NCBI GenBank assembly: GCA_963835065.1
Contig: CAWIEK010000049.1
Span: 448,001-512,000 of the forward strand
DNA: 64,000 nucleotides
Source: an uncultured Chthonomonadaceae bacterium
GTDB lineage: Bacteria; Armatimonadota; Chthonomonadetes; Chthonomonadales; Chthonomonadaceae
Direction of reading: 5' to 3'
Each line of letters opens with the position of its first letter. The stretch's first letter is position 1. Below the pieces are notes generated by a model. It did no database searches, had not been told where the DNA came from, and saw only the letters and a program-made list of their open reading frames with translations. The translations under genes and the position numbers were made by a program. This document shows positions 16,529 to 58,156 of this stretch, one piece after another.

Positions 16529-16611
16529 ATAGTTGATAGTTGATAGTTGGTAGTCCGATAGAGACGCGGCATCTACGGAAACTCTCAACTATCAACTATC
16601 AACTATCAACT
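16529..16611. repeat. Inverted heptamer-array element (AGTTGAT)n ... (ATCAACT)n
   Basis: Arms between sufD and sufS. Confidence 0.9.
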
Positions 16612-18808: not shown

Positions 18809-18832
18809 ACGCAACACGGTTCAAATAAGAAC

Positions 18833-18946
18833 CCGTAGGGACACAACATGTTGTGTCCTCCTCTGGTACATATTGTGTCCTTCTCCGGTAGAGGAAAGCG
18901 CGGACACGGTATAGAAGCGCGGACACAACATGTTGTGTCCCTACGG
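18833..18946. repeat. GTAG-family REP doublet
   Basis: CCGTAGGGACACAACATGTTGTGTCC ... GGACACAACATGTTGTGTCCCTACGG perfect inverted pair, each copy internally palindromic. Confidence 0.9.
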
Positions 18947-18972
18947 CATTTTATTGGGTTGAGGAGACGAAC

Positions 18973-34080: not shown

Positions 34081-34283
34081 GCCGGGTATTTTCAACGCTT
34101 GCTGTGAACTACTGGCCGTGTGGTTTACCGGGGGTTGAAAACCCCTGTCTGGACAAAGCAAGCGTCTTTCAGACGCGCCCAGGCTTTCGGGAAGTTGCGT
34201 CTGGAAGACGCTTGCACTTTCCTGCCGGGGATTTTCAATCCCCGGCCAGTATTTCACAGCAAGCGTTGAAAATACCCGGCTAC
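34081..34283. repeat. Nested palindromic (BIME/REP-like) element of about 200 bp
   Basis: 38-bp near-perfect terminal inverted repeat GCCGGGTATTTTCAACGCTTGCTGTGAAMTACTGGCCG, plus inner inverted pairs GGGGTTGAAAACCCC / GGGGATTTTCAATCCCC and GCAAGCGTCTTTCAGACGC / GCGTCTGGAAGACGCTTGC. Confidence 0.9.
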
Positions 34284-39116: not shown

Positions 39117-39162
39117 GATAAAGAAGCCATTCCGATAGCTTTGTGCCACGCCGGGGGCTTTG

Positions 39163-39359
39163 ACCCTCAACCCCGGCCCTTCTCCCTGATTCCCGAACTG
39201 CGTTCGGAGGGAGAAGGGAGCGAGTGTCATACCTTTACCTGACCAGTGGAAGATGGACGTGTTGTAAAGATTATAATCAACGGACACAGGCTGTGCCTTC
39301 GCTCCCTTCTCCCTGCGACGAAGGAGCGAATCAGGGAGAAGGGCCGGGGTTGAGGGTAC
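39163..39359. repeat. Left REP-like doublet (copies A and B', inverted)
   Basis: ACCCTCAACCCCGGCCCTTCTCCCTGATTC-loop-GGGAGAAGGGAGCGA at 39163-39223; inverted copy at 39299-39357. Confidence 0.9.
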
Positions 39360-39735
39360 CATCTTCCGGTTGCAAACGCGCACAGGTCTGCGCAATCACA
39401 ATCAGGACACCTTCCAGATTGTCGCGCACATCGGCGTTGGTAACGCGCAGAGTATGGTAGCCGTGCAAATGCAGCCAGTCGTCGCGGGCGGCGTCACGCT
39501 CGACGGTTCCGTTGTGCGAACTGCCGTCCACTTCCACGAGCAGGCGTAACTCCGCGCAGTAGAAGTCGGCAATATACCTGTCCAGAACCACCTGACGGCG
39601 AAACTTGTGCCCGTCGCACTTCCGGTCACGCAAATACGCCCACAACCGCGCTTCCATAGGAGTCATTTCGCGGCGAAATTGGCGGGCGCGTTCCGTCAGT
39701 TGCGGACGGATACGCAGGCGTTTCTCTTGGGGCAT
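39331..39735 (-). CDS. DUF559 (Vsr-like) endonuclease
   Basis: RARQFRREMTPMEARLWAYLR, KFRRQ, YIADFYC, LLVEVDGSSH, DAARDDWL, LRVTN. Confidence 0.93.
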   Translation of the reverse strand: MPQEKRLRIRPQLTERARQFRREMTPMEARLWAYLRDRKCDGHKFRRQVVLDRYIADFYCAELRLLVEVDGSSHNGTVERDAARDDWLHLHGYHTLRVTNADVRDNLEGVLIVIAQTCARLQPEDGTLNPGPSP

Positions 39736-39810
39736 ACGTTCGTTTCCTTTCCGGGGCGGGATTGCAATGGCGATTGCTTCGACAGCGGCGTGGATGGTTC
39801 CTGCCAGGTT

Positions 39811-40010
39811 GTACCCTCAACCCCGGCCCTTCTCCCTGATTCGCTCCTTCGTCGCAGGGAGAAGGGAGCGAGTGTGGTAGCTTTACCTGTTGAACGTGAA
39901 GTGGGCGCATTCGTAAATCTTGTAGCTCACGCACTCACCTTCCGCCTTCGCTCCCTTCTCCCTCCGAACGCAGTTCGGGAATCAGGGAGAAGGGCCGGGG
40001 TTGAGGGTAC
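39811..40010. repeat. Right REP-like doublet (copies B and A', inverted)
   Basis: Same repeat at 39813-39871 and inverted at 39948-40008. Confidence 0.9.
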
Positions 40011-40070
40011 AACCTCCCGTTTTGCAGCAGCCTGAATAGCCAGAATCAGATTTCGCTATAGCGCGTATTG

Positions 40071-40808: not shown

Positions 40809-43537
40809 GGCGTAGGGCGGCCCTGTGTTGAAGTTCCCGAGTGGCGCATTCTTTGCGGCGGGTTCATTTGCGTTGGGCTGCTTTGCATTAGAGTTTTCCG
40901 GCGCCGCATTGTCCTGCCCTGCCGCTTTTTGCGCCGCTTCCGCGTCCGCTTGCTGCTCCTGATGGAAGGTCGTCTGCTCTGCCTGCCACCTGCGCGCGGG
41001 CTGCGTTTTCGGTCCCGCCCTGCTGCTGTAAAGCCTTTTGCCATTCCGTTAGAACCTGATCGTACAGCGTGGTCAACCCGGCTGCTTTTTCGGGATTTTG
41101 CGCGCGCTGTAATTGGTAAATCTCGTAGCCGCGATGCTGCCAGTAAGCGCGAAGCAATCCGGCGGCTTTCTCGAACTGCGCCGCCGCTTCCTTTGCCTGC
41201 TGCCGCTCCAACAGCCATTTGCCAAGCCGCGCATGGGCAAAAGCGAACTCGGTTTCCGTCGCTTCCGGCATTGCGCGTACCGTACCGACAGGTGTTGCTT
41301 CCAGGCCGGCCATCTCCTGATAGGTTTGCGCAGACTGCGCCGCATTTCCCGATAAAGCCTGCGTTTCAGCCAGCGCGCGCAGGGTTTGCAGGTTATGCGG
41401 ATCATATATCGCGGGCGTTTTGCAGGGCGTCCAGAGCCGGCTTGTACGCAGTCGCGGCTCCTCCCTGCAAAACGCCGCTCAGGGCAAGCGGAGCATCGTT
41501 ACCGGAACTGTTTGCGCCTCCCAAAGCCTGCCGAATAGCCTGTCGCTTGTAAAACTGCCCTAACTGGTAGTACGCTTTGCCGGAGGGCGCAATTCGCGTT
41601 GCCTGCTCCAGCGCCATTCTCGCTTTATCCGGTTCTCCCATCATCTGGTATAGGCTGCTTGCTTTCGCCAGCGGTTCCGACGTAAACGGGTCTATATTCG
41701 CCGCAGACTGATAACTGTGCAGGGCGTTTTGCAGGCTGTCCCGCGCTCCCGCCGCGCCCTGCGCCTGCTGCTCCTGAAACTCGGCTACCGACAGCATGGC
41801 CTGCGCCGCCTGCAACCGCGATAGATAGGTCACGCCCCCGCGCCATGCCAGCAGCAGCGCGACAACGCCACACGCCGCCAACATTCCCTTCGACAAGGGA
41901 CGGGGCTTTTGCGTTGCAAGCGGGGCAATGTCCCGCGCCTGCGCCGTCAGAAGCCCGACAACCGCGCTCAGGGTCAGGGCGGTTGCCAGAATGTACCAGT
42001 CCGAATCGAACAGACTGTGCAGGATGGAACACACTATCGCCGCCAGCAATCCGGCTAATAGCAGGCGAGGCTCTTCAAACAATTGCCGATTGCCGATTGC
42101 CGATTTTCGATTTTCGATTTTCGATTTTCGATTTTCGATTTGGGCAGATGGCGTTGTGTTTTCCGGTAATTCTATATCGTTGATGTAGAGGTCGTTGGTG
42201 GCGGGATGCGCTTGTGACGTTGGGGCGTTTTTGGCGTTTGCGCGTGATTTGCCGGGAGTGTTTAGAAACAGGACGTAGACGGCGAAGGCGGACGAGGCGG
42301 CGAAAACAACGAGCAGGCACAGCGCGCCGGGTACGCCGGTTTCCGCCGTCCATTGCAAAAAGCTGTTGTGGGCATGGGCGGTGGGGGCGGCAACAGCGTA
42401 GCGCGGGTAGGCGGTTTCGTAGCTGCCGATGCCGGTTCCCGTCAGCGGGTTGGCGCGCGCCATGCCCAATGTCGCCGTCCATGTCACCTGCCGGAACTTG
42501 CCGGAATGGGCCTGCGTGTCCGCCGCTTCTCCGACACTGGCAACAGCAGCCGTCGCGCTGCCCGTCGCCTGCTTGCCCGTATTCGTCAGGCGAATCAGCA
42601 GGGGCGTAGACGCCAGCAGCGCGGACAGCAGCATCACGCCCAATCCGGCAAGCAACTGTCGGCCTCGCCCTCGCACAACGCCCACGCGCAGCAGCAACAG
42701 CAGCCATCCCACTACAACCACAAACAGCATTGCCACGCCCGCCCGCGAACCCGTCAGCAACAGGCACGCGGTTTGCAGCACAAGCCCCAAACCAACTAGC
42801 AGCTTGGCTTTACTTTCGCGGGCGGACACGAAGCACGACAGCGTTAAAGGCAAGGTCAGCAGCAGATACCCGGCAAGAAAGTCGGGGTTGAGAAACGTGC
42901 CGAACACGCGATGCGCGGAATTGCCCTGCTTCCACTGATCCAGATACTCGTGAATGCCCCACGCGCCCGCCAGACTTCCCGCCGCTATAATCACGAGAAG
43001 CAATGTAATTAGCGCGTTATGGTCACGGCCCAACCGTGACGCCAGCCCGCCGACTGTCAGCGCGGCCAGCAGCATGGCCCACGTATCCAGACGCGCCGCA
43101 TTGAGGGGCGGATGCGCGAACATGGAAACTGCTGCCCAAATTGTCAGCACACATGCGCCTCCCGCCAAGCCTCCTACCGCGCCAATCGCAACCGGGCGGT
43201 GCCACTCGCGGGCTATCGTCACGCCCAACGCCAGCGCGGCCACAACGCTGAGTATGGGTACGCTCATTATTTGCAGCCAACTAATCACATCTGCGGGCGG
43301 AACGGAGTTCAACGACGTAGACGCAAACACGCCCGCCATCAAGGGAGCCAGCAACAGCGCAAAGGCGACCAGGTACAACGCGATTTTATCCAGCGACGAC
43401 AGAGCGCGCGCATCTCGTTCCTGCGCCGTTTCAGACACGGATTCAGGCGCAGGCTTCACATTCCCTACAGGGCTATCCTCAAGGCCATCTTCATCAGCAG
43501 AAATATCAACAAGTCGCAAAGGCGGTGGTTCGGTCAC
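40805..43537 (-). CDS. O-antigen ligase (Wzy_C)-family membrane protein with TPR C-terminus (indels near 41000 and 41400)
   Basis: RVFGTFLNPDFLAGYL, TGSRAG, NPLTGTGIGSY, HAHNSFLQWTAETG; TPR-like helices; GTGA overlaps at both ends. Confidence 0.85.
42081..42143. repeat. In-frame heptamer array (RATTGCC)3(GATTTTC)5GATTTGG
   Basis: 9 x 7 = 63 bp; translated as QIENRKSKIENRKSAIGNRQL. Confidence 0.9.
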
Positions 43538-44820
43538 GAAGCGTCTCCGGGGCGGCGCAAACCGGAAGCCTCCGGGGGCGCAGTCGCCGCGTTGGTTATA
43601 GTTGAGTCAGGTACAGGCGAGCCGGTTATGGCTGCGTTGGTCAGGGCTGCATTAGTTAGGGCTGCATTAGTTAGGGTTGCATTAGTTACGGATGCATTAG
43701 TTAAGGTTGGAATGTGTGGCACGGCTGATAAATTCGGCAGCGCGGAAACTTTTGGCTCAACGGGCGCAGATCTTTTTTTACGCCACGCCGCCAGTTTGCG
43801 CTGCCAGTAACGGACGCGCCAGCGCAATATCTGCCCGACTGCCCGCAGCGCGATACCCGGCAAAATCAAAGGCCGCAGCAAAAAGGACGTTTGCGCCCGA
43901 TAGTGCTTTTTATAAAACAAATACTGGCTGCGATGAAATTCATACGTCATGCGCGTCGGAGCCTGATCGCTGCTTTTGCCGATGTAATGGTAGATGATGG
44001 CGTCGGGCAGGTAGGTAACGCGCCAGGTAAGGGAACAGGGAACAGGGAACAGGGAACAGGAGTCTTTAGTTGATAGTTGATAGTTGATAGTTGATAGGAC
44101 ATCCGCTCCTTCTGTCTTCTCTTCTGTTCCCTGTTCCCTGTTCCCTGTAACCTGTAACCTGTAACCTGTTCCCTTTTCCCTCACCGAAACGTGATTGGCC
44201 CGCCAGCACAAATCTACATCCTCGCAGTACATATAATAATCTTCATCGAAGCCGCCGATCTGGTCGAGGCAGGCGCGGCGGATCATCAGGGCGGCCCCGG
44301 ATACCCAATCCACATCACGGGGCGTGGCGTGGTCCCAGTTTTTCATCAGGTAGTCGGCGGCATGGCGGTTTTTGGGCAATAGTCGTCCGAGCGGCGTGTT
44401 GTGCAGAAAGCCGGTGGCAAGATTGGGATACTGACGGCACGAGTATTGCAGGCTGCCATCCGCATTGAGCAGTTTGGGGCCGAGAATACCCACATCGGGG
44501 TTGGCGTCGGCGTAATCCACGAGGCTTTTTAACGCGCCCTCCGTCACCTGCGTATCCGAGTTCAGGAACAAAACGTAACGCCCCGCAGAAGTGGGAATGC
44601 CGACATTGTTGCCCGCGCCGAAGCCCAGGTTCATCGGGTTGGCAATCAATTTTACCTGTGGAAACTCGCGCCGTACCATATCGCGGCTGTCGTCACTGCT
44701 GGCGTTGTCCACGACAATCACTTCCACATCCAGGCCGTTGTGCGGACGTGTCAGGGTTTGCAGGCACTCCTGCAGCAGTTTGCGGGTATTCCAGTTTAGA
44801 ATGATAACGGATAAATCCAC
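43534..44820 (-). CDS. GT2 glycosyltransferase (WbbL/RfbF-like) with a repeat-derived insert and pentapeptide tail
   Basis: SVIILNWN, VVDNASSD, FLNSD, DWVSGAALM, GGFDEDYYMYCEDVDLC. Confidence 0.92.
   Translation of the reverse strand: MDLSVIILNWNTRKLLQECLQTLTRPHNGLDVEVIVVDNASSDDSRDMVRREFPQVKLIANPMNLGFGAGNNVGIPTSAGRYVLFLNSDTQVTEGALKSLVDYADANPDVGILGPKLLNADGSLQYSCRQYPNLATGFLHNTPLGRLLPKNRHAADYLMKNWDHATPRDVDWVSGAALMIRRACLDQIGGFDEDYYMYCEDVDLCWRANHVSVREKGTGYRLQVTGNREQGTEEKTEGADVLSTINYQLSTKDSCSLFPVPCSLTWRVTYLPDAIIYHYIGKSSDQAPTRMTYEFHRSQYLFYKKHYRAQTSFLLRPLILPGIALRAVGQILRWRVRYWQRKLAAWRKKRSAPVEPKVSALPNLSAVPHIPTLTNASVTNATLTNAALTNAALTNAAITGSPVPDSTITNAATAPPEASGLRRPGDAS
44030..44181. repeat. Nested in-frame heptamer element (AGGGAAC)4-(AGTTGAT)4-(CTGTTCC/CTGTAAC)7
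   Basis: Inverted arms with a second array type inside; lies within the GT2 reading frame. Confidence 0.92.
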
Positions 44821-46728: not shown

Positions 46729-46823
46729 AAGTGATGAACAATGAGTGATGAATAGAATTCTGCTTCATCATTCGTCATACGCCGCTTGCTTATTCATCAT
46801 TCATCACTCATTGTTCATCACTT
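46729..46823. repeat. Inverted heptamer-type element (GATGAAY/ATTCATC)
   Basis: 25-bp perfect inverted repeat AAGTGATGAACAATGAGTGATGAAT; the right arm encodes the GT2 C-terminus and stop codon. Confidence 0.88.
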
Positions 46824-47727
46824 GCTTGTGTCTTTTCCGCGCTTGCAGCCAGGCGTGGGGCCAGGATGCGGCGGCGATGAGCAGGCGCAGGGGCCAGAAC
46901 CAGACAGCGCGGTAGTGCTTGGCGTAGAAGCGCAAAAGCCCACGCCGCGACTCCCAGGCCATTGCGCTGCCGACTTGGACGGTACTCGCGCCGCCATAGT
47001 GGATAATCTCGACTTCGGGCGTGAACCAGATTTTCCAGCCCGCCCGCTTGCAGCGCAGGCACCAGTCCACTTCGTTGAAGAAAATCGGGAAGGCCAAATC
47101 CATCAGGCCGACTTCTTCTATGGTTTGACGGCGCAGCAGCAGAAAAGTGCCCATCGGCTGATCCACTTCCGCTGTATGCGCGTAATCGAACCACGTCATA
47201 CGGTACGCGCCGAACACGCGGCTGCCTGGCAGCAGGCGGCTCAGGCCAAGCAGTTCCCATAGTACCGCCATAGGAGTCGGAAACCCGCGCACCGATTTTT
47301 GCAGGCTGCCGTCCGGGTGTACTTGCCGAACGCCCAACGCGCCCGCGTCAGGATGTTGTTCCATAAACGCGACGGCTTTTTCCAGCCCGCCGGGCGGCAA
47401 AATCACGTCTGGGTTCAATAACAGATTATACGCAGAACGCGCGCGTTGCAACGCCTGATTATTGCCTTCCGCGTAACCGGTATTGTCCTCATTGGCGATA
47501 AGCCGCGCCTGTGGAAACCGTTCCCGAACCGCCGCCGCGCTGCCATCATGCGAATTATTGTCAACGACAATCACTTCAAACCCAAAATTAGGCGGCGTGT
47601 CGTAAATACTGGCAAGCGCGCCGAGCAGCAAATCCCGCGTGTTCCAGTTGACGATGCAAATGGAGAGGAGGGTGTTCGGGTATTCGGTATTCAGGTGTTC
47701 AGGTATTCGGGTATTCAGGTTATCCAT
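46804..47727 (-). CDS. GT2 glycosyltransferase (WbbL/RfbF-like)
   Basis: SICIVNWN, VVDNNSHDGS, LLNPD, VDQPMGTFLL, FPIFFNEVDWC. Confidence 0.92.
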   Translation of the reverse strand: MDNLNTRIPEHLNTEYPNTLLSICIVNWNTRDLLLGALASIYDTPPNFGFEVIVVDNNSHDGSAAAVRERFPQARLIANEDNTGYAEGNNQALQRARSAYNLLLNPDVILPPGGLEKAVAFMEQHPDAGALGVRQVHPDGSLQKSVRGFPTPMAVLWELLGLSRLLPGSRVFGAYRMTWFDYAHTAEVDQPMGTFLLLRRQTIEEVGLMDLAFPIFFNEVDWCLRCKRAGWKIWFTPEVEIIHYGGASTVQVGSAMAWESRRGLLRFYAKHYRAVWFWPLRLLIAAASWPHAWLQARKRHKQVMNNE

Positions 47728-58034: not shown

Positions 58035-58156
58035 TAGTTGATAGTTGATGGTTGATAGTTGATAGTTCCTGTACCATAGTCTTTGCTGTGGGTTTGGCTG
58101 ATGATGAGGCTACTCTACATTCGGGCAGATGCCTATCAACTATCAACTATCAACTA
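58035..58156. repeat. Inverted heptamer element (AGTTGAT)4 ... (ATCAACT)3
   Basis: Same unit as at 16529; lies between hisF and hisI. Confidence 0.9.

Follow-up and report, generated by a model that had tools for sequence, protein, structure and literature searches.

The window analysed here is the whole stretch of 64,000 nucleotides from an uncultured Chthonomonadaceae bacterium (GenBank assembly GCA_963835065.1, contig CAWIEK010000049.1, positions 448,001 to 512,000). On its minus strand, at 43534..44820, lies a gene for a family-2 glycosyltransferase (GT2) of 428 aa with an intact frame (Pfam PF00535, E 1.8e-22), which is 62-84% identical to its orthologues. An NCBIfam scan of P0001 gives glycosyltransferase families only. 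The gene contains an insert of 165 nt, i.e., 55 codons (44026..44190, minus strand, residues 211-265), flanked by H210 (44193-44191) and W266 (44025-44023). A paralogous GT2 on the same strand, 46804..47727, has a short loop with two residues where the insert sits. The net gain is 53 aa compared to this paralogue and 51 aa compared to P0004, the closest orthologue. None of the 55 codons is a stop, and only one of the six frames, the gene's own, is open. The two basic claims of a preliminary description of this DNA, an insert relative to the short-loop paralogue and a frame preserved without a stop, therefore stand. A six-frame check of the insert found no ORF of its own.

Read along the coding strand, the insert shows an AGGGAAC/AGGTTAC arm, a purine linker, four copies of CTATCAA and four copies of CTGTTCC, the last at 44060-44030. 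The array scan places the purine-rich left arm of AGGGAAC/AGGTTAC heptamers at 44124..44181 and the CTATCAA arm (AGTTGAT on the plus strand) at 44067..44097, and the short purine-rich linker between them, 44098..44123, recurs in other composite copies of the genome; all of these are on the minus strand. The pyrimidine-rich right arm (44030..44062, minus strand) is predicted from complementarity and folding to pair with 44121-44153. These outer arms of 33 nt are 91% complementary, with a longest uninterrupted helix of 25 bp, and the insert folds with z = -6.5 (0/200 shuffles are equally stable), which bears out the inverted AGGGAAC/CTGTTCC element described earlier. It is a long stem formed by terminal inverted repeats, of the type found in rRNA intervening sequences. 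An outer inverted repeat of 10 nt (44026..44035, partner 44176-44185, 1 mismatch) closes at the insert borders. Alignment to orthologues, the check proposed in the preliminary description, sets these borders at 44026/44190, and no direct repeat of at least 5 nt, i.e., no target duplication of that length, was found there.

The insert had been called a nested element containing an AGTTGAT array of the same unit as at 16529 and 58035. The unit is indeed present at both places; however, the intergenic copies at 16529..16611 and 58035..58156 are complete two-armed AGTTGAT/CTATCAA elements in the array scan, while the inner array 44067-44097 is a lone arm without a pairing partner. The idea of a nested complete element was rejected, and the insert is better described, from its arm sequences, as a mosaic of arms. 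The same arm mosaic recurs elsewhere in the genome (G000), in a hydantoinase B-family gene (C37:219948, 82% over 157 nt) and in ligA (C5:28573, 76% over 158 nt). The linker-plus-arm pattern has seven matches in the genome, the GT2 insert included, and the mixed AGGGAAC/AGGTTAC arm also flanks a four-helix-bundle gene at C25:14084-14404. The CTATCAA arm is stop-free in one orientation only, and its coding-strand copies number 43 in that orientation and none in the opposite one.

Other repeats lie close by. The neighbouring gene at 41402-43537 carries a second in-frame array of the same family, of AAAATCG type (42082..42141, minus strand), and the first codons of the paralogue overlap an octamer array at 47686-47720. 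A five-copy tandem repeat of 15 nt (43610-43709) forms part of the C-terminal tail of the GT2, and its version in P0004 is shorter.

The loop site in homologous glycosyltransferases

A loop survey was made of 120 sequences, the query and 119 of the 120 listed homologues (the self-hit was dropped). Among the matches listed, the loop at the insert site is 5-79 aa long; it is at most 6 aa in 12 of the 120 sequences and at least 20 aa in 61. The DNA of 62 loci was examined and the loop obtained from 47, all of them in frame and stop-free. Strong tandem arrays are present at only 3 of these 47 loci, so most long loops in the orthologues are not repeat-derived. The preliminary description had named a non-repeat loop of similar length in orthologues as evidence against its reading, and this is partly what is seen. 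Related proteins, for example P0005 and P0010, have their own repeat-like loops at the site, repeat origin in homologous proteins being judged by eye.

In a quick tree (67 rows, loop removed) P0004, with a loop of 7 aa, is the sister of the query (SH-aLRT 97), and 316 of 343 aligned residues are identical between the two. A protein from the congener G002 with a 34-aa loop of a different unit is sister to a protein with a 5-aa loop. The label "long loop" has to change 17 times on this tree, and strong branches make 8 of these changes unavoidable.

An AlphaFold2 model built from a 23-row alignment has a confident core, with pLDDT below 50 at residues 218-261. This stretch sits between the helix 199-210 and the strand 267-278, which answers the earlier proposal to model the structure: the insert occupies a predicted disordered loop. 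Solved structures are distant GT-A folds only (sequence matches with E 1e-16 or weaker; Foldseek identity 13-22% in the listed rows) and thus give no template for the loop. The variable loop in relatives and the model together suggest that the element occupies an already permissive site and did not create it.

From the sister protein P0004, which is without the insert, and from the full stem that is still present, we infer that the GT2 copy is a recent arrival. However, the last residues of the short loop in P0004 match the end of the insert, so this loop could be an excision scar, with loss in P0004 in place of gain. A search for the DNA of P0004 gave a best segment at 71%. Among contigs from five DNA runs, no independent contig bridges the exact insert allele, and the read depth over the arms in these runs derives from other repeat copies. 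In one contig about 94% identical to the GT2 gene, 164 letters are replaced by 89 different ones, which makes it 75 nt shorter here.

The window holds further palindromes. A cluster of long inverted repeats at 39152-40022 includes a palindrome of CCCTTCTCCC type, and in L015 the GT2 loop at this site (79 aa) is taken up by a palindrome similar to the CCCTTCTCCC type. Two more palindromic repeats, at 18824-18955 and 34081-34280, are unrelated to the heptamer arms; we take them to be REP-like.

A genome-wide family of heptamer arrays

Cyanobacterial STRRs are heptamer repeat arrays known in bacteria, and the arrays in this genome are STRR-like: they occur in genome-wide excess, with about four copies and often as inverted pairs. 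Perfect arrays of 7-mers number 1329, against 31 of 5-mers, 32 of 6-mers and 6 of 9-mers. Imperfect 7/8-mer arrays number 2234 in 1417 clusters, compared to none in 1 Mb of shuffled genome. Where arms are paired, each is about 31 nt long (median 31), and the element as a whole about 118 nt. There are about 25 recurring units of fixed polarity; in 686 multi-array clusters the G-rich arm comes first in 625 and last in 2. Spacers match elsewhere in the genome in 65 of 360 cases, leaving 295/360 without a match.

Among the 6498 genes called in this analysis, 234 (about 3.6%) carry together 266 clusters, a genic cluster being defined as at least 40 codons inside a gene; 961 clusters are intergenic. 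Twenty insert-bearing genes, a chosen and non-random set, were named with NCBIfam, and those above the cut-off include ligA, leuS, metG, dxs, miaB and glnE, of which all except miaB are noted as single-copy in the assembly. Of 371 intergenic copies, 311 begin at most 20 nt from the upstream stop, where 194 would be expected, and in roomy gaps 52 of 103 do so, compared to 14. The GT2 insert alone is ordinary for this genome, a real and probably neutral family member, and it is the family that carries the interest.

Translation or removal at the RNA level

The preliminary description left two possibilities, that such elements invade genes and create new peptide loops, or that the hairpin is skipped or removed at the RNA level. 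The frame test used 1.6 Mb of two congeners, in which 1409 proteins were called, 995 of them with an orthologous span in G000. All 36 orthologue-anchored elements are in an open frame (31 directly, 5 on inspection), which means RPE-like in-frame fusion inside conserved protein genes such as ligA, leuS, metG and dxs. None of the 133 frame breaks found in G000 over the 995 spans lies within 30 nt of an element. Where lengths at orthologous sites differ, the difference is divisible by 3 at 18 of 21 sites in genes, compared to 23 of 67 elsewhere (p 4e-5, array counts being non-independent, so that p-values overstate). The three genic exceptions are frame breaks in G002 elements. Frame breaks in the assemblies number 188 in 670 kb of G002 vs 1 in 193 kb of G001, and 2 of 24 genic elements of G002 are affected. 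The G000 and G002 assemblies both have a high background of frame breaks, probably indel errors; carB and mnmG, apparently cut short in G000 (L183, L193), are examples of it.

The residues also appear to be filtered. Within genes, 440 stop-free coding-strand units are hydrophilic and 58 hydrophobic, while the counts between co-directional genes are 260 and 238, with a Spearman rho of -0.61 over 28 units. Stop codons are found in 7 of 505 cases in genes vs 563 of 1061, a depletion that is partly circular, as genic copies are defined by open frames, and that is therefore not the main evidence. Complementary outer arms are present in 16 of 139 genic composites vs 378 of 486 other composites, and the median folding energy per base is -0.18 kcal/mol for genic vs -0.48 kcal/mol for other copies. 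The GT2 insert is among the few well-paired genic copies (rank 15/164 in folding energy per base), which fits a recent arrival.

An element that was excised or skipped would depend on pairing and would escape residue filtering, and the data are the opposite: inserts stay in frame, prefer hydrophilic residues and are mostly without paired arms in genes. Translation of the insert is favoured over removal at the RNA level on these patterns, and of the two earlier possibilities it is the peptide loop that is likely, given 266 clusters in 234 genes, 36 of 36 open and a predicted disordered loop in the GT2. An Rfam search of the insert gave no family at the cut-off, only sub-threshold matches of miRNA-like hairpins. 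With no such match and a constrained frame, the insert does not behave as a self-splicing intron.

Turnover at fixed sites

Of 76 orthologous sites compared in G002, 40 have a different unit, 14 have the same or nearly the same one, 11 lack it and are shorter, and in 11 none is detected; these classes are approximate. As a different unit is found at the same site in 40 of 76 cases, the elements appear to be rewritten in place. The duplicated locus C61:8581-8753 and C36:2009 (G000) reads as a clear in-place swap: the flanks are 99-100% identical, the arms differ, and short shared stretches of the spacer are kept. Copy numbers at duplicated loci differ by one unit, and at some sites the outer inverted repeats extend into the flanks.

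Four-helix-bundle genes and rRNA inserts

All three TIGR02436 four-helix-bundle genes in the genome are bracketed by polar arms, one of them by the AGGGAAC/AGGTTAC arm of the GT2 insert. Across relatives, 20 of 27 four-helix-bundle loci (a count excluding five weak partial matches) are flanked by arrays on each side, compared to 0 of 260 control windows. No TIGR02436 match was found in G001 and G015, although AGGGAAC arrays are present there, which argues against a strict dependence on the four-helix-bundle gene. The GT2 insert does not encode such a protein.

Both assembled 23S rRNA genes (L117:4082-7304 and L118:3802-7025 of G000) contain three heptamer elements each, two with AGGGAAC-type arms, and the 16S rRNA gene (L118:8419-10000) contains two. 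The 23S arms fold into long hairpins (z -11.9). In G002 one element is missing from the rRNA sites (a 121-nt insert) and other units are found at the others. These elements predict a fragmented or extended rRNA, and a gene for RNase III is present in the genome. The GT2 insert itself lies outside 16S and 23S; copies with the same arm lie in both 23S genes.

Mobility of the elements is something that we infer, as neither a target duplication nor, among the arm pairs checked, a link to a transposase was found. The target-site duplication of a MITE is absent from the GT2 insert, and none is obvious by eye at 16 sites scored as empty, where the empty alleles are 80-99% identical and the power is limited. 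Among eight long arm pairs, two enclose four-helix-bundle genes and no transposase was identified, with a family scan limited to the four-helix-bundle ORFs. A parallel type of cassette is seen at the GxxExxY genes (TIGR04256): all three in G000 (C19:8329-8676, C39:76631-76978 and C3:174081-174428; L034-L036) are bracketed, judged by eye, by inverted degenerate 9-mer-like arms.

Relation to known repeats

In-frame hairpin repeats are already known from Rickettsia (PMC2229807), and heptamer arrays from other bacteria. The Rickettsia RPEs are described there as palindromes of 105-146 bp with terminal inverted repeats, with 19 reading frames reported and one RPE-bearing enzyme shown to be translated and active (PMC2229807). 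As far as this account goes, the likeness is that hairpin repeats of 100-170 nt are fused in frame in conserved protein genes and also occur in RNA genes. In contrast, genic copies here number about 266, compared to 19 reading frames, and mosaics of tandem heptamer arms, unique spacers and a unit changing at one site set this family apart from the RPEs as described. The RPE precedent offered earlier holds as an analogue in outcome only; the closer precedent is the heptamer-armed intervening sequence with a four-helix-bundle gene.

In the available part of one such account, Coxiella burnetii's 23S intervening sequence (IVS) encodes a protein of the S23p/TIGR02436 family, carries heptamer repeats in tandem at its 5' end and is cleaved by RNase III at the first of these repeats, with no ligation (PMC4990558). 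The elements described here are similarly hairpin-bounded with heptamer arms, and the arms bracket TIGR02436 genes and form 23S and 16S inserts. The differences from that description are that the GT2 copy is without its own ORF and in a protein gene, and that the family has about 1400 clusters and many units. The 23S inserts are placed here by the Rfam model (positions ~295, 1217 and 1892), not by the classical IVS helices 9/25/45.

Heptamer arrays, some inside ORFs, are reported from Xanthomonas and Nostoc (PMC4692102), from Beggiatoaceae with the unit TAACTGA (PMC4679880), and as a four-heptamer family from Geobacter metallireducens (PMC2700814). In what these accounts make available, they resemble the present arrays: around four heptamers stand in tandem, inverted pairs occur, copies lie close to stop and start codons, and some are found in ORFs, in the orientation free of stops. 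However, genic copies are few there and mostly at protein ends, while here there are hundreds within domains, also of essential genes, and the accessible parts make no link to four-helix-bundle cassettes, rRNA inserts or in-place unit replacement. A literature search, with most subscription journals and supplements outside its coverage, found no report joining heptamer arrays to four-helix-bundle cassettes outside rRNA and no description of repeat-unit swapping.

Origin of the insert and alternative explanations

We suggest that the insert is probably a gene-less copy of a genome-wide element whose inverted arms consist of 7-base repeats, lying in frame in a tolerant loop and likely translated as a disordered loop of 55 residues. 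The four-helix-bundle (S23p/IVS-type) cassettes would be the likely source of the arms, which could be copied between loci by recombination or template switching. Slippage by 7 nt would trim the arms and, with copying, produce mosaics and in-place unit replacement. Among copies landing in genes, selection would then retain those with an open frame and hydrophilic residues, which would mostly work against paired arms, and the GT2 copy would be recent.

Translation of the insert from an intact mRNA could also be combined with cutting by RNase III of the 25-33 bp stem, as in rRNA intervening sequences and with no re-ligation; paired genic copies would then lower expression and intergenic copies would be operon processing sites. 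The same arms do make long hairpins in 23S rRNA, the RNase III gene is present, the cut in Coxiella falls at the first heptamer repeat in the part of the account available (PMC4990558), paired arms are depleted in genes, with the GT2 copy a well-paired exception, and intergenic copies crowd behind upstream stops. Yet strongly paired copies lie in single-copy ligA and leuS, and filtering for hydrophilicity would be enough to make paired arms rare, since of two complementary arms one usually has stops or encodes hydrophobic residues; we regard such cutting as unlikely. Far more remote is removal of the hairpin from the mRNA with re-ligation, or ribosome bypass, giving a protein without the insert. 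The stable stem, the outer inverted repeat closing at the insert borders and the three frame breaks in G002 genic elements would fit it, but removal would free both frame and residue content, and instead the residues are filtered and all 36 elements are in frame where about 24 broken ones would be expected. In addition, the outer arms are non-complementary in 123 of 139 genic composites, the insert has no Rfam family at the cut-off, the known IVS excision proceeds, in the accessible account, without re-ligation (PMC4990558), and the G002 breaks are near the background.

A purely local origin of the arrays, through slippage of the polymerase and fold-back synthesis, with no copying between loci and an incidental link to the four-helix bundle, seems distinctly improbable. 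Such an origin agrees with the one-unit differences in copy number between duplicated loci, with the mostly unmatched spacers and with outer inverted repeats that sometimes reach into the flanks. It is difficult to reconcile with about 25 recurring units of fixed polarity (the G-rich arm leads in 625/686 and the order is reversed in 2), a stereotyped size near 118 nt and an arm order and linker repeated at unrelated loci, and an association with one gene family at 20 of 27 loci is not what local slippage by itself would predict. It is hardly credible that the GT2 gene is decaying or that the insert is an assembly artefact: the 133 frame breaks in the assembly and the lack of an independent record bridging the insert allele are in its favour, but frame and conserved residues are intact, the match to P0004 is close (316/343), and related proteins such as P0005 and P0010 have their own repeat-like loops at the site.

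Beyond our preferred reading of a translated gene-less copy, it can be speculated, though we find it doubtful, that an undescribed mobile system with no known transposase exists, with the four-helix-bundle (S23p/Avd-like) cassettes as its autonomous members; it would insert hairpin modules and rewrite them in place, exchanging unit and spacer while the site stays fixed, and would do so in rRNA, at stop codons and within hundreds of genes. If this were true, the system would generate surface loops of proteins and RNase III sites throughout the genome.

One genome here unites heptamer arrays, rRNA intervening sequences with a four-helix-bundle protein of unknown function and RPE-like coding repeats, which the accounts, as far as available, describe separately. 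About 3.6% of its genes, essential ones included, carry repeat-derived loops with signs of selection at the amino-acid level. The replacement of units at fixed sites gives a testable handle on the spread of heptamer arrays and on the role of the four-helix-bundle protein. The genome also contains two reverse transcriptase genes (PF00078), at C49:681660-682277 and C50:52695-53327 of G000.
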